A DNA stretch of 64,000 nucleotides, taken from Actinomycetota bacterium (GTDB taxonomy: Bacteria > Actinomycetota > Aquicultoria > Aquicultorales > JAMCWL01). Position numbers and translations under genes: made by a program. Under the pieces are notes generated by a model. That model did not search any database. It worked only from the letters and a program-made list of their open reading frames with translations, and was not told the DNA's origin. Below, one piece after another: positions 1,805 through 47,006 of this stretch (position 1 is the stretch's first letter; each line of letters opens with the position of its first letter). The stretch lies in NCBI GenBank assembly GCA_023481285.1, contig JAMCWL010000004.1:6115-70114 (forward strand), read 5' to 3'.

Positions 1805-2908
1805 ATGCCGGTCACCTGGCCGCACCTAGGGAACCTTGAAATAGTGCTCAAGGACCTGATAACGGCGGCCGGGCAGCCCTATATCCTCCCCCCAAAAAAC
1901 ACGGCCCGCACACTGCAGCTCGGGCTCCGTCACTCCCCGGAGTTCGCCTGCCTTCCTCTCAAGATAACAATAGGTAACTTCATCGAAGCTCTCGAGGCGG
2001 GAGCGGATACGCTCATTATGGCGGGCGGAATCGGCCCCTGTCGCTTCGGCTACTACGCCCAAGTCCAGCGGGCCATCCTCAACGACCTTGGCTACGACTT
2101 TGAGATGATAGTCTTGGAGCCGCCGGCCATGGGCTGGAAGCTCTTCGTCGACACGCTGAAAAGAATCGCCCCCGGCAAGAGCCTCTGGGAGATCGCCAAG
2201 GCCATCAAATTGGCCTTTCGCAAGGGCAGGGCGATCGACGCGGTCGAGCGGGAGGTCCTCAAATACCGCGCTTACGAAAGGAAGAAGGGGGCGACGACAA
2301 AGGCATACCGAGCGGCTCTGAACGTGCTTGACGAGGCTCTCTTTGAGAAGGACGCCATCGACGAGGCTAAGGAAGAAGCGCTCGGCCTGGTCTATGGCGT
2401 TGAGAAGGACGTGGACAGACCGGTTCTCAAGATGGGCATCGTGGGCGAGTTCTACCTTCTTCTCGAGCCGTTTGTAAACTTCGACGTCGAGGAATACCTC
2501 GGTCACTCCGGAGTCTCGATCGAACGCTCCGTTTACGTCTCGGACTGGATCAGCCCGGGCAATAACAACATTATCGGCGGTATTTCCGAAGAGGAGATAA
2601 AGCGAGCGGCAGCTCCCTATCTCAACCACTTCGTCGGCGGGGAGGGGCAGGCGACCGTCGGTCATACCGTCATCTATGCCGGCCACGGCTTCGACGGCGT
2701 CATGCAGCTCTTCCCGTTCACCTGCATGCCCGACACGATCGCCAAAAGTATTCTGCCGAGGGTCGGCAGGGATTTCGACATTCCGATCCTGTCGCTGGTA
2801 ATTGACGAGCAGACGGGCAAAGCGGGCTTGATCACCAGGCTCGAGGCGTTTTTGGATCTTTTGTGGAGTCGACGGATGCAGCGCGAGAAGCGCCTCTTAA
2901 GCGTGTAG
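1805..2908 (+). CDS. Second activase-associated / 2-hydroxyacyl-CoA dehydratase-like protein
   Basis: 367-aa ORF directly after the previous stop. FACLPLKITIGNFIEAL...GPCRFGYYAQ...FTCMPD motifs parallel the upstream paralogue. Confidence 0.6.
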   Translation: MPVTWPHLGNLEIVLKDLITAAGQPYILPPKNTARTLQLGLRHSPEFACLPLKITIGNFIEALEAGADTLIMAGGIGPCRFGYYAQVQRAILNDLGYDFEMIVLEPPAMGWKLFVDTLKRIAPGKSLWEIAKAIKLAFRKGRAIDAVEREVLKYRAYERKKGATTKAYRAALNVLDEALFEKDAIDEAKEEALGLVYGVEKDVDRPVLKMGIVGEFYLLLEPFVNFDVEEYLGHSGVSIERSVYVSDWISPGNNNIIGGISEEEIKRAAAPYLNHFVGGEGQATVGHTVIYAGHGFDGVMQLFPFTCMPDTIAKSILPRVGRDFDIPILSLVIDEQTGKAGLITRLEAFLDLLWSRRMQREKRLLSV

Positions 2909-2997
2909 AGATTCTTGGCGCTCCTCTGTCTTATTTGGGAAGACAACCGTACGGCCATCCGGAACAGCACTTGGGCTTGTGACCGACAAGCGGAGGG

Positions 2998-3996
2998 ATG
3001 ATGAGGAAAGCAAATACAACCGGTATCCATTTGGGGATAGATGTCGGCTCGGTCTCGACCAACCTGGTCGCGCTGGGGGAAGATGAAGAAGTCCTCGCCT
3101 CCGTCTACCTGCGAACCCAGGGACAACCCATAGCGGCTGTCCAGAGAGGTTTGATTGAGCTTGAAGCACAACTGGAAGACGTCCCTCTTGAGGTGGGGAG
3201 CGTTGGCACCACCGGTTCCGCCAGGTACCTTTCGGGCGTGATCGTTGGAGCCGACATCGTCAAGAACGAGATTACCGCCCACGCGGTCGCGGCCTCATTT
3301 GTCGTCCCCGAGGTCAGGACGGTGCTCGAGATCGGAGGCCAGGATTCCAAGGTCATCCTTCTCAAGCAGGGCGTGGTCGTTGATTTTGCGATGAACACCG
3401 TCTGCGCCGCCGGCACCGGCTCCTTCCTAGACCACCAGGCTGCCAGGTTGGGGATTCCGATCGAGGATTTCGGCTCTCACGCTCTTAAAAGCAGCTCCGC
3501 CTGCCAGATTGCCGGGCGCTGCTCCGTCTTTGCGGAGTCGGACATGATTCACAAGCAGCAAATGGGCTATCGGGTGGAGGACATAATCTATGGCCTCTGC
3601 CAAGCGCTCGTCCGGAACTACCTCAACAACCTCGCCAAGGGGAAGGAGATAGTGGCGCCCGTCGTCTTCCAGGGCGGGGTCGCGGCAAACGCTGGCATGA
3701 AGAGATCTTTCGAGGACGCCCTCAAGACCGAGGTTATAGTTCCGAAGCACTACCACGTGATGGGGGCGATCGGAGCCGCACTCCTCGCTAAAGACTCCAT
3801 AGGGAACGGTGAGACGAAGTTCAAGGGATTCGGAGCGTCTTCAATCGACTATCGCACGTCGAGCTTTAACTGCAAGGGCTGTGCCAACAACTGCGAAATC
3901 GTCAAGATTGAGGTCGAAGGGACGGTTCTCGCCCGTTGGGGCGGTCGCTGTGGAAAGTGGGAGGTCCAAGAGGTCGAAGAAGAAGCGGCCGTCTAG
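2998..3996 (+). CDS. BadF/BadG/BcrA/BcrD-family ATPase (CoA-substrate-specific enzyme activase, HgdC-like)
   Basis: 332 aa. Actin-fold ATPase motifs GIDVGSVSTNLV, LEIGGQDSKVI, NTVCAAGTGSFLD. C-terminal Cys cluster CKGCANNCE. Confidence 0.85.
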   Translation: MMRKANTTGIHLGIDVGSVSTNLVALGEDEEVLASVYLRTQGQPIAAVQRGLIELEAQLEDVPLEVGSVGTTGSARYLSGVIVGADIVKNEITAHAVAASFVVPEVRTVLEIGGQDSKVILLKQGVVVDFAMNTVCAAGTGSFLDHQAARLGIPIEDFGSHALKSSSACQIAGRCSVFAESDMIHKQQMGYRVEDIIYGLCQALVRNYLNNLAKGKEIVAPVVFQGGVAANAGMKRSFEDALKTEVIVPKHYHVMGAIGAALLAKDSIGNGETKFKGFGASSIDYRTSSFNCKGCANNCEIVKIEVEGTVLARWGGRCGKWEVQEVEEEAAV

Positions 3997-29185: not shown

Positions 29186-29275
29186 GGAGGGGTGCTGGAG
29201 TGGTTGAACAGGGCGGTCTCGAAAACCGTTAAGCCCGCAAGGGCTTCGAGGGTTCGAATCCCTCTCCCTCCGCCA
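29186..29275 (+). tRNA. tRNA-Ser (anticodon CGA), CCA encoded
   Basis: Acceptor GGAGGGG/TCCCTCC, anticodon loop CTCGAAA, long variable arm, T-loop GGGTTCGAATCCC, terminal GCCA. Confidence 0.9.
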
Positions 29276-29308
29276 GTTGTTGACAAGGGCACTAAGTGTC
29301 CTCATATC

Positions 29309-29397
29309 GGAGGGATGCAGGAGCGGCTGAACTGGCACGACTGGAAATCGTGTAGGGGGCTTCAACCCCCTCGAGGGTTCGAATCCCTCTCCCTCCG
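29309..29397 (+). tRNA. tRNA-Ser (anticodon GGA)
   Basis: Acceptor GGAGGGA/TCCCTCC, anticodon stem CACGA/TCGTG with loop CTGGAAA, long variable arm, T-loop GGGTTCGAATCCC. No encoded CCA. Confidence 0.9.
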
Positions 29398-29546
29398 CAA
29401 AATGGCCCATTAAGGGCCATTTTGCGGAGCATTAGAGCATTAGACATTAGAACACTAGAGCTCATGAGGGTCTAGAGAGCTAAAAGACTTTCAATCGGGC
29501 ACCGGTTGCTCTAATGCGAATCTAATGCTCTAATGATCTAATGCTC
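29395..29546 (+). repeat. Repeat module copy 2: perfect hairpin plus inverted arms of tandem GCATTAGA-like units
   Basis: A 14-bp perfect hairpin CCGCAAAATGGCCC-ATTAA-GGGCCATTTTGCGG (29395-29427) overlaps the tRNA 3' end. Arms are GAGCATTAGAGCATTAGACATTAGAACACTAGAGC (29427-29461) and GCTCTAATGCGAATCTAATGCTCTAATGATCTAATGCTC (29508-29546). Confidence 0.7.
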
Positions 29547-29780
29547 TCCCACATTGGAACATCGTAGCGGCATGGCGATGCCTTGCCCGCGGGCAGGCCG
29601 GCGGCTCGCCCCTACTAGAACCACACAAAAGGAAATCGAGTTCCCATCAAAACAGATGGCAGGAAGATCGCGCCGCTTCCATCTGTCTTTTTGCAGAGCC
29701 TGAATGTTGGGGCCATGACCAACGGACTTATCTTGACAGATCGGGGCGATATGCGATGATTAGAGGGTATTTTTAGGTCC

Positions 29781-29874
29781 GGAGAGATGGCCGAGTGGCT
29801 GAAGGCACTCGCCTGCTAAGCGAGTAAGGGGGCTTAAACTCCCTTCGAGGGTTCGAATCCCTCTCTCTCCGCCA
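29781..29874 (+). tRNA. tRNA-Ser (anticodon GCU), CCA encoded
   Basis: Acceptor GGAGAGA/TCTCTCC, anticodon stem CTCGC/GCGAG with loop CTGCTAA, long variable arm, T-loop GGGTTCGAATCCC, terminal GCCA. Confidence 0.9.
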
Positions 29875-30380
29875 GTTGTTGACAAGGGTACTAAGTATCC
29901 TCATGTCGCAGGTGGGATTCGAACCCTCAGGGGGGCATACTCATGGGGGGAAGGATTCCCTCATGATCTGTTCTATTGAAGCAGGGCGGGCTTGGGTGCG
30001 TGATGAGATAACAGTGAGAGCGATGCCCGCGCGCCGCATTTGCTGCCGAACCGCCGCTCGCGACGTCAATCATACTGCGGCCCGCGCCGCCGCGCGCACA
30101 GGCGGTCACGCTGCCGCAACCGTCCACGTTGCCGGTCATGCCCCTCAGGCCGCCCACTACGCCGTTGCGCCGAAGCCGCAAATGTTGTTAGGGAAAGTGC
30201 GTGGCAATATCTGCACCTTCCGGAACATCTTCGTTCAATAAATAGTGTTCGCCGCCCGGTGTAATAACCCGAAAATCGCCTTCTGGTGCCTGCTGTTCAT
30301 CAAAATCCCCATTGACACCAGGTCAAATGTGGTAAATAACATGTAATACAAATTATTATAAAGTAATAAAGGAGGTGGTC

Positions 30381-30635
30381 GTGTTGGCCAGAGCTAGTAA
30401 AGTATTAACGGTATCTCTGCCCCAGGAGATGTTCAAGAAGGCAGAGAAGATTGCAAGAGAAGAAAACCGGACCAGAAGCGAGCTTTTTAGAGAAGCTTTG
30501 CGTCAGTATATTTCTACCCGTGAAAGATGGCAGAGCGTAAGAGCTCGGGGAGCAAGAACGGCAGAAGAGCTGGGCATTAGATCAGAGGAAGATATCGAGC
30601 GCTTGATTCAGGAATTTAGAAGCGAACATAAATAG
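30381..30635 (+). CDS. Ribbon-helix-helix (CopG/MetJ-type) antitoxin
   Basis: AAAGGAGG RBS. KVLTVSLPQEMFKKAEKIAREENRTRSELFREALRQYI is a typical RHH beta-strand plus two helices. The stop abuts the PIN start (TAGATG). Confidence 0.75.
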   Translation: MLARASKVLTVSLPQEMFKKAEKIAREENRTRSELFREALRQYISTRERWQSVRARGARTAEELGIRSEEDIERLIQEFRSEHK

Positions 30636-31042
30636 ATGATAAAGGTCGTTCTTGATACCAACGTCTATATTTCAGCCATTGCAATCGGCGGAAAGCCGGA
30701 AGAGATTATCGATCTGGCTCGCGAGGGTCTAGTCGAGGTCTATATCTCCAAACCCATCTTAAGAGAGATCGAAAGAATCCTTGAGACAAAATTCAAATGG
30801 TCCAAGGACGAGATCGGGGAAGCCACCTGGAGCTTGTCGCCATCACCAGACTTACCAACCCGGAGATAACCCTTTCGGTTGTCGAAGGTGAGCCCGATAA
30901 CCGTATCTTGGAATGCGCCATCCAGGCACGAGTTGACTTCCTAGTCTCTGGAGATACCAAGCATCTCCAGCCACTAAAAGAATACGAAGGGATAACGATT
31001 TTAGGCCCGGCGGCATTTCTTGATGAAATCGAAATAGATTAG
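30636..31042 (+). pseudogene. PIN-domain toxin, interrupted by a frameshift
   Basis: The N-terminal half MIKVVLDTNVYISAI...ILREIERIL (track 30636..30869) and the C-terminal half ...EPDNRILECAIQARVDFLVSGDTKHL (track 30797..31042) lie in two frames that overlap around 30800-30850. Joined, they give a PIN_3-like protein of about 135 aa. Confidence 0.65.
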
Positions 31043-31191
31043 TCTAATCGCTGCTCTTCGGAGTCCAGTGACTACATGCTTAGCTTCTCTACCTGCTGTA
31101 ATGCTGCTATAATATTGTTCGAATAGACTCCGCGGAACATCCAAGCCAAGTCTCGCGGCGAAATGCTCCCCCATGAAAGGGTCAGGCCTTC

Positions 31192-31833
31192 CTACCTCAC
31201 AGTCAGGGCCTTGCTTACATCCGCTTCGCTGAAGGGACCGCCAGAGCTCCATCCCGTGCGGTTGCGGTAGTCCATAAGCTGGCCGGTGCTGAAGTACTTG
31301 ATCTCCGGCCGGTCGAGGTTGTCGTTGTTGAAGTCGAAGCTTACCGAGCCCCCTCGCCCGATTGAGAGGCGCTTCTTCCAAAACCGCGCCAGCCAAACCC
31401 GCTTGGTGATGGTGTAATCCGACGCGCCGCCTGTCTTGACGCTGTTGAGGTCGGCAACGATGAGTTCGGCGCCACCGTCTTGGACCGCGAGGTTAAAGCG
31501 CCCCTGGTCGTCGGTCTGCTTCTCGATGATGATCTTGTCCCCGCGGACGACGAGGACGCGAGCTCCGACTACCGGGTAATATCCGACGGGATCTCTCCAT
31601 TTGACGCGGCCGGTGATGGTCCCTTCTCCGGGGAATGATCTGTAGGCGGCTAGAGCGATAGCGAACAGCGCGATGACGCCGGCGATTATGCGAACGCGCT
31701 TATCCGTGGTTTTTAAGAGCGTCCCCAGGAACTTCTTTATATCGGGCAAAAGTCTGTCCTCCATTTCAGCCCCGCAATGGGGACAGTTGACTACGCCCTC
31801 ACCGGTTTCGGAGTCACAGACCGCACACTTCAA
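31192..31833 (-). CDS. Zinc-ribbon / single-TM / beta-sandwich (carboxypeptidase-regulatory-like) protein
   Basis: 213 aa. N-terminal CAVC...CPHC ribbon, TM IIAGVIALFAIALAAY, then GTITGRVKW...ARVLVV...TDDQGRFNL typical of CarboxypepD_reg-like folds. Confidence 0.5.
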   Translation of the reverse strand: MKCAVCDSETGEGVVNCPHCGAEMEDRLLPDIKKFLGTLLKTTDKRVRIIAGVIALFAIALAAYRSFPGEGTITGRVKWRDPVGYYPVVGARVLVVRGDKIIIEKQTDDQGRFNLAVQDGGAELIVADLNSVKTGGASDYTITKRVWLARFWKKRLSIGRGGSVSFDFNNDNLDRPEIKYFSTGQLMDYRNRTGWSSGGPFSEADVSKALTVR

Positions 31834-31975
31834 GGTATCCCCAGAGATTAGCGCGCGTAAGGCGGGTTTATAGATAAAAAGTGCCAGTTACTGACCGATT
31901 AGTCAAGAGGTAGCCAGCCGATGTGGCTCTGAGCAGACAGTTCGGTTGCGGGTCAAGGCGGGCGGTCAGGAGCGG

Positions 31976-32004
31976 TTGACGCGCTTTCGTGTAGCATTTA
32001 CTAT
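31976..32004 (+). promoter_or_regulatory. Sigma-70-type promoter for tRNA-Arg
   Basis: TTGACG (31976-31981), a 17-nt spacer, then TACTAT (31999-32004), about 27 nt upstream of the tRNA. Confidence 0.45.
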
Positions 32005-32030
32005 AAAAATCTCTTTAAAAGGTGAAAAAC

Positions 32031-32104
32031 GCGCCCGTAGCTCAGCTGGATAGAGTAACGGACTACGAATCCGGTGGTCGGGGGTTCGAATCCCTCCGGG
32101 CGCG
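32031..32104 (+). tRNA. tRNA-Arg (anticodon ACG)
   Basis: Acceptor GCGCCCG/CGGGCGC, anticodon loop CTACGAA, T-loop GGGTTCGAATCCC. Followed by the hairpin GCGCAAAAAAAGG...CCCTTTTTGCGC. Confidence 0.9.
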
Positions 32105-32188
32105 CAAAAAAAGGCGTCGTAATGCCCTTTTTGCGCGCAAGCATTCGAGCAGTCGACATTCGAACATTTGAACTATGTCTCGCTCCGA

Positions 32189-32545
32189 TCAGCCCTTCCT
32201 TTTCAGCTCATCGACGACGCGCTCGATCGCGTCCAACTCGTCGAGATTTAGGTATTCAAGCTTTTTAACCAAGCGGGAATAAGTGCTCTTATCCTCTTTA
32301 ACTTGCTCGATGTCGGCGGTTGGCTTACCCGGCTGGTAGAGAAAGTATTCGGGGGGAACTCCGTAGTAACGGCAGAAGACAGCCATCTCCTCCGGCGTCA
32401 TATCGGTCTCTCCACGCTCGAGACGGGAGAGCCGGTTCTGTGACATCGGCACACCCATAGCTCTTATGTCCGAGGCTACAATCTCCTGTTTCTTGGGCTG
32501 CCTGGCTTTTCTGAGCTGAAGCCCGACCCACTCTCTGGTTGCCAT
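32189..32545 (-). CDS. XRE-family helix-turn-helix regulator
   Basis: 118 aa. VPMSQNRLSRLERGETDMTPEEMAVFCRYYGV is an HTH_3-like pattern. Confidence 0.7.
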   Translation of the reverse strand: MATREWVGLQLRKARQPKKQEIVASDIRAMGVPMSQNRLSRLERGETDMTPEEMAVFCRYYGVPPEYFLYQPGKPTADIEQVKEDKSTYSRLVKKLEYLNLDELDAIERVVDELKRKG

Positions 32546-32557
32546 AACAACAGAATA

Positions 32558-32599
32558 GCAATTTTTAAAAACACTTTCTAAAACAGTTTTAAAAATTGC
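32558..32599. promoter_or_regulatory. Perfect 13-bp inverted repeat operator candidate in a divergent promoter region
   Basis: GCAATTTTTAAAA (32558-32570) and TTTTAAAAATTGC (32587-32599), between the XRE gene and the divergent 32669 ORF. A TATAAT lies about 32620. Confidence 0.5.
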
Positions 32600-32668
32600 A
32601 ATCGCTTACTCGTTTTTGTATTATAATATTCAATACAGTAGTGCAATATTGATACTGGTATAGCGCTT

Positions 32669-32926
32669 ATGAGAAAAAAAGCGGTCAGAAAAACAGCGAA
32701 GATGCGGTTGATAGAAGAGAGATTCGGTCGTCCTGTTGAGGCCTTGCTTAGAGATCTCTACCGGACTCAGACTATGAAGCAGATAACCGAGCACCTTAAG
32801 AAATCGGGCGTAGGGGTGAGCGTCGGTACCTTGTCCATCTGGTTCTTAAAGCTGGGGATCGAAACCCGGAGATGGACCCACCCGGAAGAGTTTGAGGAGG
32901 GAGGAGCAGGTAAAAATGATCGGTAG
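32669..32926 (+). CDS. Small putative DNA-binding protein
   Basis: 85 aa. MKQITEHLKKSGVGVSVGTLSIWFLKLG looks like an HTH. Divergent from the XRE gene. Confidence 0.45.
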   Translation: MRKKAVRKTAKMRLIEERFGRPVEALLRDLYRTQTMKQITEHLKKSGVGVSVGTLSIWFLKLGIETRRWTHPEEFEEGGAGKNDR

Positions 32927-33524
32927 GCTGCATGGCGCTCTACTCAAAAGCGGGACGCTCATTCCTCCAGGGGCACTTCGCCCTTCAAGAGAGATGAGGA
33001 TGTGGAACGAGCACCTCACGATGGCCGTAAGTGTATTCTTGTCATTTATGGAGCACGGAGTAGGGCAGCTCGGGGCCGAGAGTAGCACCAGCAAATCGCT
33101 GTCAAAGGGAGAAATCGCCCTCTTTGTCGTTAATGAGTATGGTCTTGGCAAGAATGCTGACAAGATTGACGTCCTCAAGCAGCGGAGCTTGAAGGGCCTC
33201 GGTAGGGTGGACGTCAGTCGAAGTCGAAGTACGGATGATAGGCTGGCGGACATGGCTATATCACTCGAAGCTCTCCACTCAAACCGTCTCTGGCGCTGGC
33301 TCGTGGTTCAGATAGCCTCTTCTCTGCAGACAGGGGGTATCTTTATTATCAAGGAACCTTTCAGGCCGAGTTGGGTTCCATGGATCGTTCGCATCCACCC
33401 TGGCTCAACAAGGGATTTTACATGGCAAGCGTTCGTCGACCACTGCTCTGACTCAGGCCTTGAACTGATAGCCTTCCAGCGGCTCTGCTTGGCGAGAGAA
33501 GCCGTCTTCATCCGCCGGAGATAG
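32916..33524 (+). CDS. Hypothetical protein (C-terminal part faintly resembles a class I SAM-methyltransferase fold)
   Basis: ATG at 32916 follows GGAGGAGCAGG. TGGIFIIKEP...SGLELIAF resembles the post-motif region of methyltransferases, but no GxGxG motif is seen. Confidence 0.35.
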   Translation: MIGRLHGALLKSGTLIPPGALRPSREMRMWNEHLTMAVSVFLSFMEHGVGQLGAESSTSKSLSKGEIALFVVNEYGLGKNADKIDVLKQRSLKGLGRVDVSRSRSTDDRLADMAISLEALHSNRLWRWLVVQIASSLQTGGIFIIKEPFRPSWVPWIVRIHPGSTRDFTWQAFVDHCSDSGLELIAFQRLCLAREAVFIRRR

Positions 33525-33639
33525 AGACTGCTCGTTTTTTTTCGCATTTCAAAAATCCTTGTTTTGCTAGGCAGCCGGCCGATCGGCGAGTTTTTCACTC
33601 CGGGTCGACGGGGATACTCTTCCTGGTAGGAGGGATGAG

Positions 33640-34038
33640 GTGGAGTTGCCGGAAAGAGACGGGGAAGAAGAGAGGATATTGCACTCCCTTGATGAGAGCG
33701 AGTGTATGAGAGAGGGTGATACCATATACTGCCGCGAGGGCGGAAAAATCGAGACTTATCCGCTGGAAGAGGGGCGGGGATCGATAAGCGAAACGTCCGT
33801 CGTCGGCTTCATCCTTGGAGTGCTGGGGGTTCTCCTCTTGCCCCTTCCGTTCATCGGCATCTCGTCGGCCATTCTGGCCATCGTCTTCAGCGGGGTTGGA
33901 ATCTACCAATCGAGGGGCGGCATACGCCGCGGCTTCGCCATCGCCCTCTCGGGGTTCATCCTCGGGGTCATCGGCATCGTCGCATTCGTCGTTTTAATGG
34001 CCAGGATCCTCGCGCTTGGCGGTTCGAGATTGTACTAA
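33640..34038 (+). CDS. Small membrane protein (DUF4190-like, two Gly-rich TM helices)
   Basis: 132 aa. Acidic N-terminus, then VVGFILGVLGVLLLPLPFIGISSAILAIVFSGVG and FAIALSGFILGVIGIVAFVVL. Start uncertain. Confidence 0.45.
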   Translation: MELPERDGEEERILHSLDESECMREGDTIYCREGGKIETYPLEEGRGSISETSVVGFILGVLGVLLLPLPFIGISSAILAIVFSGVGIYQSRGGIRRGFAIALSGFILGVIGIVAFVVLMARILALGGSRLY

Positions 34039-34133
34039 GGTTCTTACTAAGAGCCATTTTGCACGTTGACGGGGTTAATTAAAGGTATGGACAAGCGCCA
34101 AAGCAATTAGGCGGGTGCAAACCGAAGGTTTTG

Positions 34134-34218
34134 CGGAGGGAGAGGGATTCGAACCCCCGGACCCTTGCGGGTCAACGGTTTTCAAGACCGCCGCATTCGT
34201 CCGCTCTGCCATCCCTCC
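34134..34218 (-). tRNA. tRNA-Ser (anticodon UGA)
   Basis: Minus strand: acceptor GGAGGGA/TCCCTCC, anticodon loop CTTGAAA, long variable arm, T-loop GGGTTCGAATCCC. Confidence 0.9.
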
Positions 34219-38854: not shown

Positions 38855-39211
38855 GCTACACCGCCTCTCTTTGTGCAGCTATTTTACCCGCGCGATAAGG
38901 CTGAAGCCTGGGGGCGATATAACACTTGGAACAACGGCTTGATCTTCTCGCTGGTGGCTGATATGAATTCTCGTACTATACTTGGTAGCAGCTATGCAGC
39001 GCGGCCCTTTGTGAAGCGACTCCCGTCTCTACATCAAGAAGATGGCGCGGAAACATTCTAAAAAACTAAGCCGCCAAAAGTGCCCTTTATTTTGGTGGAG
39101 CAGATAGGACGCAACTTGAACCGGGATTTGCTGGATAAACTAGTAAAGCATGTCGCTGAGCTGAAATTACCCTAAGCGAGAGGCAGATTTTTCGCCTTTT
39201 AAGCCTCTTGA

Positions 39212-39361
39212 ATTCAGGACATTATTCGGGACATTTTTTCGATATTCAGGACATTTAGCAGGTAAATCGCTACGTCTTTGTTATCAAGAAAACGGTAAAA
39301 AAGACTAATTCCAACAATATTCAGGACATTATTCGGGACATTTTTGCCGGATTCAGGACAT
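39212..39361. repeat. Six copies of the 11-mer ATTC[A/G]GGACAT in two near-identical 43-bp blocks
   Basis: Copies start at 39212, 39224, 39244 (block A) and at 39319, 39331, 39351 (block B). Start-to-start spacing is 12 and 20 nt in both blocks. Confidence 0.8.
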
Positions 39362-39387
39362 TCACCTGCTCAAGGTATAAGTTGCGG

Positions 39388-40776
39388 CTATTCCGAAGCC
39401 CTATATTGTATGTTCCTGCTGCCACCTGTTTTTTGAACAAATTCGGTTCCGGTCAACAAAGTTAAGTCCCTCGTGGCCGTCTTGCTTGTTACTCCAAAGA
39501 GTTCCCGATAAGTTTTGTTAGTCAAAACTTTCCTCTCATTAACCATAAGCGCCAGCGCCTTGACTTGCCGCTCATTGAGCCCGAGCGCTTTCAGGTCGGT
39601 TACTCCTTCTTCCGGTACTAGATCAAGAATATGGTCGCCTGGACCATAGAAGGTGATTATAAAGTGCTCGGCTTTTTCCTGAATCTTGGGTACTCTTAGG
39701 CCGTGGCCTTTCATCCAATTCTTCATCTTGGTAATGCCCGTGCCATACTCTTCCATCTCATCGATATCATGGAAGCGCTCACAAAGGATATCGTTTCTCG
39801 GCCGGTGCTTTCCTTCGAGATTCTTGATGTCAATCCCTTCTGGTAGACCGCCCGGGCTTTGGACTTCTACCCGATCATCAAAGATCATGACTTGGGTGGA
39901 ACCAGACATTCTATAGTCTCGATGAACGAGGGCATTGACCATCGCTTCCCTTAGGGCTTTATACGGGTATTCGTAGATTGATGTGCCTCTAAAGCCAACT
40001 ACCTTGTGGGCTCTTCGAGTGTTTCTTCTGATGAACCTCTCGGCCTCATCAAGCATCTCGGGCAATGTACCTTCAAGCTCTGCTCTGTCGATAAACTCGA
40101 GTCTGGTTGTCCCCTTAAAACGGGCCATCTTGAGCTGGCTTCTCGAAAGAAACTGTTGTGGTTCCTTGCCGAAAAACAAAATCCCTGCCCAGGTGGGAAC
40201 TAAATCACCCGTCAAGCAATTGAGATTTATAAGGATTTGCTCGATGCTGGCTTTTGGAATAGATAAATTCCTGACCTCAGCCCTTCTTTTTAAAAACCAA
40301 TCGACTTTTTCTCTATCGATGTCGTCAGAAGTTGCATCTTCTACTGGCGCTATATCAAAAGCTGGCATATTTTTCCTAAATAGCCTTTTTAATTCTTCGC
40401 GTTTCATTTGGACGGTGGTCTTGCCTACTCGCTTATATGGCTTGCCGAATGCCATATACGGCTGGCTGGTGCCTTTACCGACTTTTACCGTCACCAATGT
40501 CTTTCCGTCGATCGTAACAAGGTCAATACTGGGATAGATTTGAGGCTCCGTATTGCCCACTATCTTATTCGACATTTGCTCGACGTTGTTCTGGCCGATA
40601 TCAATTCCGACTAAAGAGCCATTGTTCCCGACGCCGAAGATAACAATACCGCCGTTTGCATTGGCAAAAGCAACTAAAGTTTGAATCGCTCGGTCAATTT
40701 CGGCAAAGGAGCGCTTGAATTCAACTTTTTCGCTCTCGCCCTCTTTAACTACTCTGAGCAGCTCTTTTTTATCCAT
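39388..40776 (-). CDS. AlbA_2 (Schlafen-type) domain / HATPase_c_4 / C-terminal wHTH protein (COG2865-like putative regulator)
   Basis: 462 aa. N-terminal ESEKVEFKRSF...LVAFANANGGIVIFGV (AlbA_2), central ALREAMVNALVHRDY (HATPase_c_4), C-terminal HTH LTNKTYRELFGVTSKTATRDL. Confidence 0.8.
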   Translation of the reverse strand: MDKKELLRVVKEGESEKVEFKRSFAEIDRAIQTLVAFANANGGIVIFGVGNNGSLVGIDIGQNNVEQMSNKIVGNTEPQIYPSIDLVTIDGKTLVTVKVGKGTSQPYMAFGKPYKRVGKTTVQMKREELKRLFRKNMPAFDIAPVEDATSDDIDREKVDWFLKRRAEVRNLSIPKASIEQILINLNCLTGDLVPTWAGILFFGKEPQQFLSRSQLKMARFKGTTRLEFIDRAELEGTLPEMLDEAERFIRRNTRRAHKVVGFRGTSIYEYPYKALREAMVNALVHRDYRMSGSTQVMIFDDRVEVQSPGGLPEGIDIKNLEGKHRPRNDILCERFHDIDEMEEYGTGITKMKNWMKGHGLRVPKIQEKAEHFIITFYGPGDHILDLVPEEGVTDLKALGLNERQVKALALMVNERKVLTNKTYRELFGVTSKTATRDLTLLTGTEFVQKTGGSRNIQYRASE

Positions 40777-40931
40777 AATTAAATTCTAGCCTGAATCAGT
40801 GGTTGGTACAATATGAAAAGGCTGGTTGAGGGCGTCGAAAAAAGAACTCGGGAAATCAACGAAATCCCATTGGGCAATGCTTATTTACTAAGTCCAAGGT
40901 TGTTTGCCTGTTCTTTTTTATCTTGAGATAT

Positions 40932-42233
40932 TTAATCGAACGCATGAAAGATGACGTCGAATATCGCCCTCAAACCTTGCCAATCGGCAGCAATCATTTC
41001 CGACTGAGAGGTTCTACAGCGCTTTAGCTTTTTCTGGAGCGCTTCATGAATCGTTTCCTTATGCATCACCTCGCCTTGATATTTGTTCAACTTCTCCACG
41101 AAACCTTTCCATTGGACCGGGAACTTGCCATCACCATTAGTTAAAACATCCTCACCCAAATAAAGTTCTATGCTAGCGGCACGGCCATTAACATCAAGTT
41201 CTACACGACCTCCTGGGCCGATTGTGGGATAGCTCTTGAGTAAATCGAGATTTGGATAATTGCAAATAGAGATGTTCGACGGCAGTTTAATTGCAGTTAG
41301 GGAACGTCTTGCATCAAACGCCGCAGCATCGTTATCAAAGATGGCAATTATTCGATTTGTAATTCCAGCAGCGGCAAATGCCTTAACAATCGCAACAAGA
41401 CTGCCAGCACCGCCTTGAGATCGAAAGGAAGCGATATCTAGAAACGAATAATATTCGGCTAGGTGAGGATAAAGCAACGCAAGGCCCTCCCTTAAAATCT
41501 CCACGTCGGTAGAACCTTCTGTAAGAATTATTCGCAACGAGTTCTCTGTGTGTCTCTCTGTTAAGGACTCGATGGATTTCCGACATACTGGTTCGTCTTC
41601 GACATAATAGCCAGCGTGAACCACCTCAGTAATGTCCTGAACAACTTCAGAGTTTGGTGCTGCCAATTCACAAGCCAAGCGCAATAACGAACGGATGTCC
41701 GAAGCAAAAAATCCAAGCTCAAAGTCTTCATGCTCGTCATCTAAAACTATGTATTTTGTCAGAGGATCTAGCTGATTCTCGTCTTCTTTTTCAAGGAACC
41801 AAAATACCAGCTTGTCGTCCATTACTTTTCTGAGACCTTCCGCATACTCGTCAAAGGTCAGCTTTTTAACGAACTTCCACTCATCAACAAACCAATCCAA
41901 TTCTTGATTTTCTTCTGCCCCATGCTGCAACTCCTCAAGCTTTTGCGCACGAATCGCTTTGAAATCTTCTTTTATTCGCCGAATAGTAAAACCCATGATA
42001 TTGAGACGATCAATGACTTTTGTAGTATCGCTCTGGTATACCACGGCTCTTTCGTGAGTCTCGCGGTCTGGCTCCTTTGGTTCACCCCATATAACAGGAT
42101 TTCTCTCTGATAGCTTCCGATCGAAAATGCACTTGTCCGACTCTCGAAAAATAGTCATCGCTTCAGGAACAACCGTGCTCTTTGTTAGAAGCACCGGGTA
42201 ACCTGCTATCGAAAGTTCAGTATACGATCCCAT
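40932..42233 (-). CDS. Toprim-domain protein with HEPN/Toprim-associated-like N-terminal domain (putative nuclease effector)
   Basis: 433 aa. N-terminus MGSYTELSIAGYPVLLTKS...IFRESDK. Toprim Glu in RIILTEGSTD (E239) and DxD in IAIFDNDAAAFD (D300/D302). Confidence 0.6.
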   Translation of the reverse strand: MGSYTELSIAGYPVLLTKSTVVPEAMTIFRESDKCIFDRKLSERNPVIWGEPKEPDRETHERAVVYQSDTTKVIDRLNIMGFTIRRIKEDFKAIRAQKLEELQHGAEENQELDWFVDEWKFVKKLTFDEYAEGLRKVMDDKLVFWFLEKEDENQLDPLTKYIVLDDEHEDFELGFFASDIRSLLRLACELAAPNSEVVQDITEVVHAGYYVEDEPVCRKSIESLTERHTENSLRIILTEGSTDVEILREGLALLYPHLAEYYSFLDIASFRSQGGAGSLVAIVKAFAAAGITNRIIAIFDNDAAAFDARRSLTAIKLPSNISICNYPNLDLLKSYPTIGPGGRVELDVNGRAASIELYLGEDVLTNGDGKFPVQWKGFVEKLNKYQGEVMHKETIHEALQKKLKRCRTSQSEMIAADWQGLRAIFDVIFHAFD

Positions 42234-42265
42234 GGCATCACCATCTCTAACACGCGTTTCATTAT

Positions 42266-43141
42266 TTAGATGGAAACCTTCTGCAGCGTTTTGGATATTT
42301 CATCAAGTGCTTCCTCGACCATATCAAGATATGTTTCAGCTTTCAGTGCTCCGAGGCACCAAGTAAAAATCGACAGGAAATCAATCTTTGTCTTATTTGT
42401 CGAAAAAATATCAAGAAGAAGAGGGAGAAAGCAGTCGTTCCGGGTGCGACCAACAGCATGAACAAACTCTATGGGGTAAGCAAGAGCAATTTCAGAAACC
42501 AACGCTAGCTCGCTGTTTGCTTCAAGCAATGCTTGGATAACCCTAGCGCGCCAATACTCCTCATCAAGTTCTTCGAGGATTCTTTCGATCGGTAACCTTA
42601 ATAACGCATCAGGATTTCGGGCTATAAGTTGAAGGTATTCTTGGTCGCCGTGCTCTTGGTAGAGCACCCAGAGATGGCACCCTAGACTAGGCGTTACTCC
42701 TGCTTTCTTGAATGCATCGAAGGCCATCTGGCGGCGGGCCTTTCTTGTGTGAGTAAAAAATGGCCCTGCAATATCTTCAGCAAATTCCGCATCCAGACGT
42801 TTGAGAATTCGACTCGCATACCTGTCGATTTGCGCCTTGCTTTTCGATGGAAAAGTCTCGGCTCTTTCCAATAGCGACTTTAATGCTGGTGCAAGCAATG
42901 ATTGCTCTTCTTTGGTAAGGCTTAGCTGACATAGACAGTCGACTATTTGGGCAGCGTTTTGAGTGCGTTCTAGCTCGCGAAGATTCCAAACTAGATCAGT
43001 AAAGGGCATACATCGAACTCGAGCCATATTGAGAGCATTGTAGATTTGGGGAGCCACAGACTCGAAGTGCAGTCGTTCAAATTCTTTGTCACCTAAGTCG
43101 GCGCGTAGCCTAATTTCAAGCTCGTGACTAAGCGTCATCAA
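42266..43141 (-). CDS. Hypothetical all-alpha protein, partner of the Toprim gene
   Basis: 291 aa, helix-rich by composition, with no motif I recognise. AGGAGG RBS at 43150-43155. 32-nt gap to the downstream gene. Confidence 0.55.
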   Translation of the reverse strand: MMTLSHELEIRLRADLGDKEFERLHFESVAPQIYNALNMARVRCMPFTDLVWNLRELERTQNAAQIVDCLCQLSLTKEEQSLLAPALKSLLERAETFPSKSKAQIDRYASRILKRLDAEFAEDIAGPFFTHTRKARRQMAFDAFKKAGVTPSLGCHLWVLYQEHGDQEYLQLIARNPDALLRLPIERILEELDEEYWRARVIQALLEANSELALVSEIALAYPIEFVHAVGRTRNDCFLPLLLDIFSTNKTKIDFLSIFTWCLGALKAETYLDMVEEALDEISKTLQKVSI

Positions 43142-43174
43142 AGCACTCGCCTCCTGAGCGCCAGTACAATCATC

Positions 43175-43183
43175 ATTATACCA
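43175..43183 (-). promoter_or_regulatory. Extended -10 promoter (TGgTATAAT) for the two-gene module
   Basis: The minus strand reads TGGTATAAT about 34 nt upstream of the start codon. The -35 is weak. Confidence 0.5.
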
Positions 43184-43304
43184 ACCGCTTGCCCATGATC
43201 TATTTAGGTAATATGCTTGATACTAGCATTGTTTTCCCCAAGGAGGCGATCGATTTGGCAGTGAAGGATCAGGAAATCAGCGACAAGGAATTCAGCACCG
43301 ATTT

Positions 43305-43322
43305 CTATCCAATATTGGATAG
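43305..43322. promoter_or_regulatory. Perfect 18-bp palindrome CTATCCAATATTGGATAG
   Basis: Exact palindrome 21 nt from the tRNA-Leu 3' end and upstream of the module promoter. Confidence 0.5.
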
Positions 43323-43342
43323 AAGTTCAAGTAAGATGCAAC

Positions 43343-43429
43343 TGGTGGGCGAGGGGGGACTTGAACCCCCATGGGCTTAAGCCCACTAGGTCCTGAACCT
43401 AGCGCGTCTGCCGATTCCGCCACTCGCCC
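43343..43429 (-). tRNA. tRNA-Leu (anticodon CAG), CCA encoded
   Basis: Minus strand: acceptor GGGCGAG/CTCGCCC, anticodon stem CTAGG/CCTAG with loop TTCAGGA, long variable arm, T-loop GGGTTCAAGTCCC, terminal ACCA. Confidence 0.9.
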
Positions 43430-43566
43430 GTGATATGCGGGATTATAACACGTTTAAGTCCACCGCGTAATCGAAGTTGATGTTGTAATGCACCGCTTGG
43501 CCTTTTCTCTTATAATTATCGTATTGCTTGCCCTGGTCGCGCCGGGGCGCAGGAGGTCTTTCGAAA

Positions 43567-44319
43567 ATGAGCCTGATTAGGGAGCTCGAGCGCCGCTTCG
43601 AAACGATTCTTGAGGGCTTTTTCGCCCGCCAGTTCAGATCCGGCGTACAGCCGATCGAGGTTGCGAAGAAGCTCGCTCGTGAGATGGACGACAATCGCAC
43701 GGTTAGCGTGAGCAAGATCTACGCACCGAATACGTACATCGTCCTGGTGAGCCCGGCCGATGCTGAAAGGCTCTTGCCCTTCAAGGCCAAGTTATGCGAG
43801 GAATTCTCCGACTTTTTGACCGCCCACGCACAGCGCGAAAGTTACGCGATTATCGGGCGCCCGACCGTCGAGATCGAGGCCGGAGAAGGGCTGGGCCTGG
43901 GCGTCTTCAAAATCGAAAGCTCCCTTGTCGACCGCACCGAAGAAGGTGATCGACACGTCGAAAAGGAAGATTCAAAAAGCGAGCCCGATCTCCCGGTCGA
44001 CGGAACCAGGGTAATGAAAGCTCTCCGCCCGGAAGCAACGCTCCAGTTTCCGGATGCCAAAAAGGTTTATCCTCTCTCCGCGGAGCGAACGACGATCGGC
44101 CGCGCCGCGGCGAATGACGTCGTCATCCCGGACCAGAGTGTCTCCAGGCGCCATGCCGAAATCGTTCGGATGGGTAACGAGCGGATTCTCCGAGATCTGA
44201 GCAGCCGCAACGGAACATTTCTGAACGGCCACAAAGTCTACGAGCACACCCTAAAAAGCGGCGATAAAATCAGGATCGGTCTCACCACCCTGATTTTCCG
44301 GAGAGAGCCCGGTGTTTAA
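43567..44319 (+). CDS. fhaA: FhaA-like protein (DUF3662 N-domain plus C-terminal FHA)
   Basis: MSLIRELERRFETILEGFFARQFRSGVQPIEVAKKL (DUF3662) and FHA core TIGRAAANDVVIPDQSVSRRHAEI...NGTFLNG. AGGAGG RBS before 43567. Confidence 0.85.
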   Translation: MSLIRELERRFETILEGFFARQFRSGVQPIEVAKKLAREMDDNRTVSVSKIYAPNTYIVLVSPADAERLLPFKAKLCEEFSDFLTAHAQRESYAIIGRPTVEIEAGEGLGLGVFKIESSLVDRTEEGDRHVEKEDSKSEPDLPVDGTRVMKALRPEATLQFPDAKKVYPLSAERTTIGRAAANDVVIPDQSVSRRHAEIVRMGNERILRDLSSRNGTFLNGHKVYEHTLKSGDKIRIGLTTLIFRREPGV

Positions 44320-44719
44320 TATCGCGATCACCACACTGAAGTTCACTTTGCTCGTCGGCTTATACACCTTCCTCTTTGTGGTCCTGCGAACGATCTACCT
44401 GGATATGGCCGTGGAGAGGCGGGCTTTCGCCCCGCGCCTCATCGGTCTGAAGGGTGCGGCAGCAAGGGGGTCAAACTTTCCTCTCTCTGGAGAGAGCATC
44501 GTCATAGGGCGTGAGGTCGACGGGGGACTCTCGCTTCCCGATCCTTACATCTCCAACCGCCATGTCAGGTTGTTTACAGAGGGCAACGGCTATGCTATCG
44601 AGGACCTCGGGAGCACCAACGGGGCCTATTTGAACGGCCGTCGCCTGACCGATGTTGAGAAGTTGAAGTCCGGCGACCGCATCAGGCTGGGCGAAACGAT
44701 CTTTCAATATATGGAGTGA
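44312..44719 (+). CDS. fhaB: FhaB/FipA-like membrane-anchored FHA-domain protein
   Basis: 135 aa. N-terminal TM, then FHA core VIGREVDGGLSLPDPYISNRHVRL...NGAYLNG. Overlaps its neighbours. Confidence 0.8.
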   Translation: MFNIAITTLKFTLLVGLYTFLFVVLRTIYLDMAVERRAFAPRLIGLKGAAARGSNFPLSGESIVIGREVDGGLSLPDPYISNRHVRLFTEGNGYAIEDLGSTNGAYLNGRRLTDVEKLKSGDRIRLGETIFQYME

Positions 44720-45753
44720 GGATGCGCTACTCGGCAGCGACGGATATCGGCGGACGCCGATCGGTTAATGAAGATTCTTTTCTGGCGGATGGGCGCATCT
44801 TCGCCGTCGCGGACGGCATGGGCGGGCACCTTGCCGGGGAGGTGGCAAGCAATATAGCGGTCGATTGCTTGCGTGACATCGGGGCGTCACGCAGTTTAGA
44901 AAGGGCCCTGATCGACCGATTTGGAAGGGCAAATGAGATCATTTTCGACCGCGCCCGCTCCAATAAGGAAAGGCAGGGGATGGGGACGACCCTTACCGCC
45001 TGTGTCGCCGAGGGAAGGCGCCTCTACATCGCCCATGTCGGCGATTCCCGACTTTACCGGCTGAGGGCCGGTCGACTAAGGCAATTAACGAAAGATCATT
45101 CCCTAGTCGCTCAGATGATCGAAAGGGGGCACCTTAAGCCGGAGGAGGCCGCCGACCATCCACAGCGAAGCGTCATCACGAGAGCCCTGGGAGCCTCCGC
45201 CGAAATAAGAGTCGACGTCAAGGTCAAAGAGATGCTCCGTGGAGATCGCTATCTACTCGCCACGGATGGGCTGGCGATAGCGGCGACCGACGAAGAGGTC
45301 GCCTCGATAATCGCATCCGAAGAAGAGCTCGATTCGATCGCGGCAAAGCTCATAGCCTTAGCGAACTCGCGAGGCGGCGCGGACAACGTGACGGTGGTCG
45401 TCTTTGAGCCGGGATCCCTGCCGGCCGCTCCTCGGGTGGGTCGCATCACTAAAGCGATCGGGGCATTCCTGGCGGTCGCTATCTTGGCCATCGGCAGCTC
45501 GATGGCTTGGCGCTATCTTTCAAGTGGTTTTTATCTAGGAGAGTACGGTGGCCGGGTCGCCGTCTATCGAGGTGTTCCGGGTAGCTTCGCCGGCTTTAGC
45601 TTAAGAACCCTCATCAAAGAGACGGATGTGAAAATAGATGGGCTTCCCGCCCCGAACCGGGAGCGCCTTTCAAGGGGCATGCCGGTAAAGAGCCTTAAAG
45701 ATGCGGAAAGGGCGGTTGAGGATCTCGCCACCCTCACCCGGGAGAAGCGATGA
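44716..45753 (+). CDS. pstP: PP2C-family Ser/Thr phosphatase with a C-terminal TM segment
   Basis: NEDSF, VADGMGGH, DGL motifs. TM AIGAFLAVAILAIGSSMAW. Confidence 0.9.
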   Translation: MRMRYSAATDIGGRRSVNEDSFLADGRIFAVADGMGGHLAGEVASNIAVDCLRDIGASRSLERALIDRFGRANEIIFDRARSNKERQGMGTTLTACVAEGRRLYIAHVGDSRLYRLRAGRLRQLTKDHSLVAQMIERGHLKPEEAADHPQRSVITRALGASAEIRVDVKVKEMLRGDRYLLATDGLAIAATDEEVASIIASEEELDSIAAKLIALANSRGGADNVTVVVFEPGSLPAAPRVGRITKAIGAFLAVAILAIGSSMAWRYLSSGFYLGEYGGRVAVYRGVPGSFAGFSLRTLIKETDVKIDGLPAPNRERLSRGMPVKSLKDAERAVEDLATLTREKR

Positions 45754-47006
45754 GCCGCAGGCGCGAGTTGCTCGCCCTCATCGTCGCGTTAGCCATAAAC
45801 GCCCTCGCCTTTCTCCTTATCGGACTCGGGAAGAGGGGGGCCGTCGATATCGCCGGACTTCGCCTGGCTGTCTATCTGGCCATGATTTTTGTCGCGCTGC
45901 ATTTGGTCATCAAGTGGCGCGTACCCGAAGCCGAACAGGTCTTCTTGCCGGTCGTCGCCCTGCTCTCCGGCCTGGGTGCGGCCGCCGTTTACCGGATAGA
46001 TCCAGCCCTCGGCCGGGCGCAGGTCGTCTGGGTGGCCATCGGGGCCACGGCCGCCGTTCTCGCGATAATCCTGATCCGCCGCTATGTCGAGCTCAAGAGG
46101 TACAAATACACCTTCGCCCTGGCGGGTCTGGCGCTCCTTCTTGCGCCGATTTTTCTCGGTCGTGACCATTACGGGGCCAAACTCTGGCTTCAACTGGGTC
46201 CCCTCTCCTTCCAACCGGCGGAACTTGCGAAGGTGTTCATGGTCGTCTTTTTCGCCGCTTACCTTGAAGAGAAGAGAGAGCTCCTCTCCGTCTCGACAAA
46301 GCGGTTCATGGGGGTATGGATCCCCGAGATAAAGCATCTAGGCCCCCTCGTCATGATGTGGGTCGTCTCCTTGGCCGTGCTTGTCTTCGAGCGCGACCTC
46401 GGGACCTCCCTTCTTTTCTTCGGCGCTTTCTTGATTATGCTCTACGTCGCGACCGGCAGGCCGGTCTATACGCTTATCGGTTCGCTCCTTTTTCTGGCGG
46501 GCGCGGCGGCGGCCTATTCTCTCTTCTGGCACGTAAAGGTCCGAGTCGATATCTGGCTCAACCCCTGGGTGGATCCTAAAGGGGTCGGCTACCAGCTTAT
46601 CCAGTCGCTCATAGCGATCTCCTCCGGCGGGCTCACCGGGGCGGGGCTTGGCCGAGGCTACCCCGATTTTATCCCGGCCGTCCATACCGACTTTATCTTC
46701 TCGGCCATCGCCGAGGAGCTTGGCCTGGTCGGCGCTTTGGCCATCCTGCTCGCCTACATTATCCTCATGGCCCGCGGCTTTAAGACGGCGCTGGCGTCTA
46801 GCGAGGATTTCGGTAAGCTCCTTGCAGCCGGCCTCACCGGCGTCTTCGCTCTCCAGGCGGCCATTATCATCGCCGGCATCAGCCGGGTAATCCCGTTGAC
46901 CGGCATCACGCTGCCTTTTGTGAGCTACGGTGGAAGCTCCATTCTTGCCAATTTCATTCTTGTCTCCGTCATAGTTGAAATCTCTTCGTCGAGGAGGCCC
47001 GCGTGA
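45750..47006 (+). CDS. rodA: SEDS-family peptidoglycan glycosyltransferase (FtsW/RodA)
   Basis: 418 aa polytopic protein. LQPAELAK, PEIKHLG...TDFIFSAIAEELG motifs. Confidence 0.9.
   Translation: MSRRRELLALIVALAINALAFLLIGLGKRGAVDIAGLRLAVYLAMIFVALHLVIKWRVPEAEQVFLPVVALLSGLGAAAVYRIDPALGRAQVVWVAIGATAAVLAIILIRRYVELKRYKYTFALAGLALLLAPIFLGRDHYGAKLWLQLGPLSFQPAELAKVFMVVFFAAYLEEKRELLSVSTKRFMGVWIPEIKHLGPLVMMWVVSLAVLVFERDLGTSLLFFGAFLIMLYVATGRPVYTLIGSLLFLAGAAAAYSLFWHVKVRVDIWLNPWVDPKGVGYQLIQSLIAISSGGLTGAGLGRGYPDFIPAVHTDFIFSAIAEELGLVGALAILLAYIILMARGFKTALASSEDFGKLLAAGLTGVFALQAAIIIAGISRVIPLTGITLPFVSYGGSSILANFILVSVIVEISSSRRPA

Follow-up and report, generated by a model that had tools for sequence, protein, structure and literature searches.

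Within a 64,000-nucleotide stretch of an actinobacterial genome (the window; assembly GCA_023481285.1, contig JAMCWL010000004.1, positions 6,115 to 70,114), we analyzed two adjacent minus-strand open reading frames (ORFs), designated gene A and gene B, that lie in a low-GC islet beside a tRNA-Leu gene. An earlier note on this DNA, made from the sequence alone, had proposed that the two ORFs form an undescribed defense module in which a Toprim nuclease is paired with an unrecognizable all-helical partner. On the basis of homolog surveys, profile comparisons, and structure models, we favor, with a probability of roughly 65%, the view that gene B alone is the functional unit and encodes a single-polypeptide abortive-infection (Abi) or defense nuclease, in which an N-terminal domain gates an OLD-like Toprim domain without an ATPase. 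What the earlier note had observed was confirmed and its interpretation was partly supported; the domain calls were right, and the two-gene module and its novelty were not.

The two ORFs occupy 42266-43141 (291 aa) and 40932-42233 (433 aa) and are separated by 32 nt (42234-42265), in agreement with the earlier description. Judged by their relatives, both are real genes, because B has homologs in at least 1119 clusters at 90% identity, nearly all of ~430 aa, and A has 10 close relatives along with 308 representatives (clusters at 50% identity) recovered by an exhaustive profile search. A database protein 100% identical to B derives from a metagenome-assembled genome (MAG) labeled "Actinobacteria bacterium." The product of gene B divides into three parts.

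41583 to 42233, minus strand: gene B residues 1-217, HEPN/Toprim-NTD1 domain (PF18871), alpha+beta, by Pfam match
41244 to 41540, minus strand: gene B residues ~232-330, predicted OLD-like Toprim core, with E239 encoded at 41517-41519 and D300/D302 at 41328-41336
40932 to 41243, minus strand: gene B residues 331-433 and the stop codon, predicted C-terminal extension of the nuclease domain (conserved beta-hairpin plus helical region), from the model and the alignment

The N-terminus of B, which the earlier note had compared with HEPN/Toprim N-terminal domain 1 (NTD1), matched PF18871 over the full model length with 74.8 bits (cut-off 25, E = 1.2e-20; residues 1-217 on model positions 1-217 of 223), and the same family was matched by 49/49 relatives of B. 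In the AlphaFold model of the protein (predicted local distance difference test score (pLDDT) 89.7, predicted template modeling score 0.87), residues 1-206 form mixed strands and helices with the nuclease domain C-terminal of them, which fits the definition of the PF18871 domain. R76 and L77 of this domain are invariant across a family alignment of 130 sequences that extends down to ~30% identity, and the domain would presumably act in sensing or regulation. The name of the family includes "HEPN" on account of alternative fusion partners; B itself lacks an Rx4-6H motif of that type, and no aligned column has one in more than 30 of the 130 relatives. A Walker A motif is absent from both A and B, and B has no match to any ATPase family in Pfam, so that the earlier statements that neither a canonical HEPN motif nor an ABC/AAA ATPase is present both hold.

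This architecture was already on record. Anantharaman, Makarova, Burroughs, Koonin, and Aravind (2013, Biol Direct 8:15; PMC3710099) defined HEPN/Toprim-NTD1 as an alpha+beta domain of ~240 aa, reported fusions of it with two HEPN families, a TOPRIM nuclease, or an Mrr-type restriction endonuclease, and discussed these as Abi-like. NCBI likewise already names proteins of the B family "HEPN/Toprim-associated domain-containing protein." The description of the system as undescribed therefore falls away, and we conclude that B is a new copy in a family known computationally since 2013 and that its combination of NTD1 with Toprim is not novel. No further paper using the term HEPN/Toprim-NTD1 was found in the literature searched. 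A check against named defense systems, as the earlier note had recommended, agreed with its expectation in that no model of PADLOC v2, nor any of NCBIfam, matched B.

The direct Pfam match of OLD-like_TOPRIM to residues 234-302 of B reached 13.5 bits against a cut-off of 23.2 (E = 0.11), and because this match is marginal the Toprim assignment was tested in four further ways. Among the 49 relatives, OLD-like_TOPRIM was again sub-threshold in 30 and others matched Toprim, Toprim_2, or Toprim_3; these four Toprim-clan families were the only enzyme families to recur among the Pfam matches. In the alignment, E239, G240, D243, D300, and D302 are invariant in 130/130 relatives, as are P256, F264, G274, P327, Y335, E356, Y358, and K392, and the conserved E356/Y358/K392 cluster may complete the active site. 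Codon arithmetic places the catalytic residues exactly where the earlier note had put them. The AlphaFold model shows the order of elements expected for Toprim, namely strand 234-237, E239, a helix, strand 262-265, a helix, strand 295-299, the DxD motif, a helix, and strand 321-325, with E239 after the first of these strands and D300-N-D302 after strand 295-299. Finally, the C-terminal domain was compared by hhalign with a reference profile for the Toprim region of OLD proteins (11 sequences, P2 Old plus ten plasmid OLD/GajA-like proteins; the latter were used instead of homologs of the P2 Old C-terminal fragment, a search with which gave fragments only). The two profiles aligned over 68 columns with P = 3e-5 and a probability of 73%, catalytic motif to catalytic motif, in comparison to P = 0.37-0.8 for three negative controls.

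A skeptical reader might suppose that the Toprim call is mistaken and that the E...DxD pattern sits on a generic Rossmann-like fold with some other activity, in which case B would be no nuclease. The sub-threshold Pfam scores and an hhalign probability of just 73% leave room for this, as do the Foldseek results: searches of PDB and BFVD gave no match for B at E ≤ 0.001, the E-values were at least 0.08, and receiver, TIR, and phosphotransferase system folds were mixed in among the hits. The whole-protein architecture of B had no solved relative by Foldseek in PDB, sequence searches of PDB with the family profile and with the C-terminal half of B returned nothing meaningful, and searching Pfam with the B-family consensus did not raise the Toprim score. 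The local Foldseek matches of highest probability were, however, primase Toprim domains. The profile-profile alignment was ~10^4 times better than the controls, the recurrent Pfam matches were confined to the Toprim clan, the exact Toprim catalytic residues are kept in every one of the 130 relatives, and the authors of PMC3710099 made the same assignment independently as experts. A mistaken Toprim call is thus very improbable. We conclude that the C-terminal half of B, as predicted from sequence and model, is an OLD-like Toprim core, as the earlier note had proposed, on evidence that is supportive jointly although no single curated threshold was passed.

The question of whether A and B are a conserved pair was addressed by examining the ORFs within 6 kb of B homologs at 84 loci, 80 of them in species-representative genomes from Proteobacteria, Acidobacteriota, Chloroflexota, Bacillota, Actinomycetota, Planctomycetota, the candidate phyla radiation (CPR), and one archaeal MAG, plus four more. 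An A-like ORF was found near B at 0/84 of these loci, either by tblastn or with profile hidden Markov models at E ≤ 10 and E ≤ 1, and the reciprocal survey detected a B-like ORF at 0/39 loci of A homologs (profile at E ≤ 10). The scan of metagenome loci for A used a 23-sequence subset, the 74-sequence alignment being too diverse. Even the nearest relatives, P0002 for B (68% identity) and P0122 for A (54%), are unpaired and have other neighbors. The 450 ORFs neighboring B at the 84 loci fell into 402 clusters, with repeats only among near-identical genomes, and the 150 ORFs neighboring A fell into 114 clusters with no conserved partner. Annotated plasmid copies of B homologs stand alone, with upstream intergenic gaps of 300-1200 nt. 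The earlier note had itself named a lack of synteny in other genomes as speaking against its two-gene module, and that lack is what we observed. The pairing of A and B is unique to this genome among the loci surveyed and is not a conserved two-gene system, whether of an effector with a partner or of a type II toxin-antitoxin pair, and B homologs are stand-alone genes across many phyla.

The partner that had been called unrecognizable can be assigned to a fold class. The AlphaFold model of A (pLDDT 93.2) is all-helical with 18 short helices, and Foldseek retrieved HEAT/ARM solenoids, including CAND1, importin-alpha, the PP2A A subunit, YibA, and the SARM1 ARM domain, with high probabilities (1.0 for CAND1, importin, and PP2A-A) and E-values of at least 0.012. 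Pfam gave no HEAT match in the window protein itself, and HEAT_2 was matched by 24/74 of its relatives (best E = 1.5e-5). From these relatives and the model, we conclude that A is a predicted HEAT-repeat solenoid. It resembles Escherichia coli YibA (PDB 1oyz), a HEAT-type solenoid of ~280 aa that is likewise all-helical (target TM-score 0.40), but neither the sequence similarity nor the fold E-value between them is significant, and the A family has invariant motifs of its own, YWRxRV and YPxEFxxAVGR. The neighbors of A relatives include conflict-system genes (AAA_15/21, DUF4276, TOTE primase, SMODS with SLATT_4, TIR_2, RhuM, and AAA_13) and housekeeping genes (dnaB, alr, and AhpC). At four loci (L101, L102, L107, and L111), the A-family HEAT gene lies between the replicative helicase gene dnaB and the alanine racemase gene alr, a core-genome context that sets these genes apart from family members in defense-like surroundings. 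In four related metagenomic contigs (L120-L123, ~2355-3189), the A-family gene is split into adjacent ORFs of 166 and 106 aa, which probably reflects either a frameshift in a pseudogene or a misassembly. The idea that A is coupled to a variable downstream effector was dropped, as the gene downstream of A is convergent in about half of its relatives and the genes upstream vary just as much.

The start of gene A and the signals ahead of it are as follows.

42266 to 43138, minus strand: gene A, 290 aa from the ATG at 43138
43150 to 43155, minus strand: AGGAGG ribosome-binding site, 11 nt ahead of the ATG at 43138 and 8 nt ahead of the TTG at 43141
43175 to 43183, minus strand: extended -10-like motif TGGTATAAT upstream of gene A, a motif match in the sequence

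The ATG is the more likely start over the TTG at 43141, which would give 291 aa, because the 100%-identical database protein P0121 has 290 aa. Both the AGGAGG at 43155-43150 and the TGGTATAAT site at 43183-43175 are present as the earlier note had reported; the latter has a poor -35 region and was not among the promoters listed by a consensus promoter scan, and it therefore counts as a promoter by motif match only. Genes A and B are probably co-transcribed, and this arrangement is probably an accident of the assembly of the islet.

It is conceivable that A and B nevertheless constitute a genuine, lineage-specific two-component system into which the HEAT protein was recruited recently to serve the Toprim nuclease as inhibitor, scaffold, or sensor. 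Autoinhibition by ARM/HEAT domains is known from effectors such as SARM1, whose ARM domain is among the fold matches of A, and relatives of A occur among conflict genes. The two genes are also co-directional and closely spaced, no terminator-like site lies between them, and a single promoter-like motif with a ribosome-binding site precedes A. Such a system is hard to reconcile with the complete absence of co-occurrence at the 84 and 39 loci and with the different neighbors of even the nearest relatives. Moreover, B-family genes clearly do without A wherever else they occur, A itself is not tied to any particular partner, and some of its relatives reside in the housekeeping context between dnaB and alr. 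We consider this explanation quite unlikely.

The genomic surroundings of B homologs bear on what the stand-alone protein does. Pooled neighbors (145 ORFs from 69 loci) include integrases, the IS21 protein IstB, Type II and Type III methylases, ResIII, Lamassu LmuA and LmuB, AbiJ and Abi_2 proteins, Fic, RhuM, and PADLOC candidate systems. B homologs are found on 49 plasmids, 15 of them conjugative, where neighbors include toxin-antitoxin (TA) genes, insertion sequence elements, and a group II intron, and they are almost never carried by phage genomes. These features, the housekeeping genes among the neighbors, and the lack of a PADLOC model would also suit a B protein that is not immune in function but acts as a selfish or maintenance nuclease (an addiction toxin, or a weapon in inter-element competition) or as a niche DNA/RNA-processing enzyme, hitch-hiking in genomic islands. 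No conserved small antitoxin-like gene accompanies B, however, and the patchy spread of the family over phyla speaks against a housekeeping role. The presence of Lamassu, restriction-modification (RM), AbiJ, and Abi_2 genes among the neighbors points rather to defense, as does the swapping of the same N-terminal domain among HEPN, Toprim, and Mrr nucleases (PMC3710099), which is typical of sensor-effector immune proteins. We assign a non-immune function a small but real chance.

Several features of the wider B family were observed alongside these surveys. AbiJ-like proteins with a C-terminal Abi_C (HEPN) domain were the sole neighbor family to recur across distant lineages (Desulfobacteraceae, Fuerstiella, and Dehalococcoidia), at 3 of ~75 non-redundant loci (L028, L040, and L078), their genes lying one to three genes upstream of the NTD1-Toprim gene. 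In one lineage (L006-L008, 9442-12266), the B homolog is followed by a small ORF, a fusion of PfkB with nucleoside 2-deoxyribosyltransferase, and QueC, with Ogg-like, D12 methyltransferase, NUDIX, and dGTPase-like HD genes nearby; this looks like a nucleotide or DNA-modification defense cluster. Full-length NTD1-Toprim homologs were also present in a Methanobacteriaceae MAG (L033) and in Patescibacteria/CPR (L037, L041, L046, L059, and L077), and these archaeal and CPR copies indicate a very wide horizontal spread.

Compared with known systems, B shows no architectural difference from the HEPN/Toprim-NTD1 plus TOPRIM proteins (PF18871). It has the same full-length N-terminal domain, the same C-terminal Toprim domain, a length of ~430 aa, and a family habit of standing alone in defense or mobile contexts, and the one unusual feature of this copy is the HEAT-repeat gene that lies 32 nt upstream of it. 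With the OLD family (P2 Old, class 1 and class 2 OLD proteins, and Gabija GajA), B shares a homologous Toprim core with the catalytic Glu and DxD as well as anti-phage or abortive contexts, but the similarity is confined to ~68 columns. The OLD proteins carry an N-terminal ABC ATPase (AAA_15/AAA_21), whereas B lacks a P-loop and has PF18871 in that position; the same tools that find the AAA_15/AAA_21 domains in P2 Old find none in B. GajA furthermore requires the GajB helicase, and no helicase is conserved beside B. The PARIS effector AriB (DUF4435 Toprim), a tRNase, is similar to B in being an ATPase-less Toprim polypeptide and acts as an immune effector, but it depends on an ABC ATPase from a separate gene, AriA, which sequesters and then frees it, and it differs from B, which has its own 217-aa N-terminal domain. 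No ABC/AAA ATPase is encoded in the islet and none is conserved among the neighbors at the 84 loci; nor did the PADLOC model for AriB match B. Retron Eco2, a fusion of reverse transcriptase with Toprim, resembles B in that one polypeptide contains both a Toprim nuclease and a module for sensing or regulation, with the difference that the module consists of a reverse transcriptase and its multicopy single-stranded DNA, whereas in B it is a protein domain with no significant match in PDB. The literature searched on Toprim defense contained ATPase-linked or reverse transcriptase-linked systems only.

On our preferred interpretation of B as a stand-alone immune protein, the N-terminal domain would hold the nuclease off until an infection cue is sensed, and the C-terminal Toprim domain would then cleave nucleic acid by means of metal ions held by E239 and D300/D302. 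By analogy with other defense Toprims, the substrate might be either DNA, as for GajA, or tRNA, as for AriB and P2 Old, and the outcome would be a response of the abortive-infection type. B would require no ATPase partner for this, and A would share a promoter with B here by chance rather than as a conserved partner.

Several points weigh against this interpretation. In addition to the marginal Pfam score and the lack of a significant fold match described above, the literature searched held no experimental study showing defense or nuclease activity of any B-family member. The pool of 145 neighboring ORFs also holds ordinary metabolic and housekeeping genes, and the enrichment in defense islands is qualitative only because the survey had no matched control. 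Lastly, the 32-nt gap leaves B no space for a promoter of its own, and this, together with the probable co-transcription with A, leaves room for a local functional link between the two genes.

The islet that carries A and B extends beyond them, and its other features are listed below.

38950 to 43342, no strand: low-GC islet of ~4.4 kb, recognized by its GC drop and bordering the 3' end of the tRNA-Leu gene
43343 to 43429, minus strand: tRNA-Leu(CAG), identified by ARAGORN and by Rfam (tRNA, 56.4 bits), its 3' end forming the islet border
39388 to 40776, minus strand: gene C, 462 aa, predicted SLFN_AlbA_2, HATPase_c_4, and C-terminal winged helix-turn-helix (wHTH) domains, from Pfam and PHROG
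39212 to 39362, plus strand: six exact copies of the 12-mer ATTCRGGACATT

The GC content of the islet is 0.448, as opposed to 0.555 and 0.585 in its flanks, which bears out the AT-richer block that had been described as starting at the 3' end of tRNA-Leu(CAG). The block is longer than the two-ORF finding and includes a third minus-strand gene, C, and the three cargo genes are mutually unrelated. Gene C matched SLFN_AlbA_2 (E = 4.5e-24) and HATPase_c_4 (E = 4.1e-20) in Pfam, with weak wHTH matches, and PHROG 12156 (E = 3.6e-75). The pSlfn-HisKinase-HTH proteins are reported to rank second in frequency among the classes of prokaryotic Schlafen anti-phage defense proteins (PMC13056530), and the domain architecture of gene C matches this class. 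A TAGAAT box lies 6 nt ahead of the gene C ATG and suggests a leaderless transcript of its own; gene C probably has its own promoter. The spacer between B and C has no significant structure (z = -0.28). The possibility that C supplies the missing ATPase partner of B was rejected, since no C-like gene was found at any other locus surveyed for A or B.

Directly beyond the stop codon of gene C, in non-coding DNA at the distal end of the islet, the six copies of ATTCRGGACATT are grouped as two A-G-A triplets with a spacing of 107 nt; 0.58 are expected by chance, and 0/100 shuffles reached 7 matches. They might serve as binding sites for a protein or mark where a mobile element ends. The islet encodes no integrase and has no att-like repeat, an Rfam scan of it returned nothing except the tRNA, and no second copy of the tRNA 3' end was found at the distal border. 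We conclude that the islet is a small, horizontally acquired, defense-type element at a tRNA gene, carrying three independently distributed cargo genes of conflict type. The right flank (43528-47006, plus strand) holds what we take to be a conserved actinobacterial FHA-FHA-PP2C phosphatase-FtsW/RodA cluster, judging by its translations. On the left side of the window, Ser and Arg tRNA genes are clustered at 29186-34218.

The analysis removes a false lead, because the "new two-gene system" is not conserved as a unit, and the overall result will not surprise specialists in defense-system genomics. Beyond this genome, we suggest tentatively, and at somewhat less than even odds, that the NTD1-Toprim family as a whole consists of genuine immune nucleases that work as single polypeptides without an ATPase and share a sensor domain exchangeable among Toprim, HEPN, and Mrr effectors; recruitment of the HEAT-repeat protein as a co-transcribed regulator in this actinobacterial lineage is less likely. 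The PF18871-Toprim family is large, extends over many phyla, and was predicted to be Abi-like in 2013, and B is a reasonable candidate for experimental validation. Such work on the family would reveal whether a sensor domain in the same polypeptide can take the place of an ATPase in gating a Toprim nuclease, and which cue is sensed. If the interpretation is true, this would be the first Toprim defense effector under the control of a protein sensor domain of its own, with neither an ABC ATPase nor a reverse transcriptase in that role.

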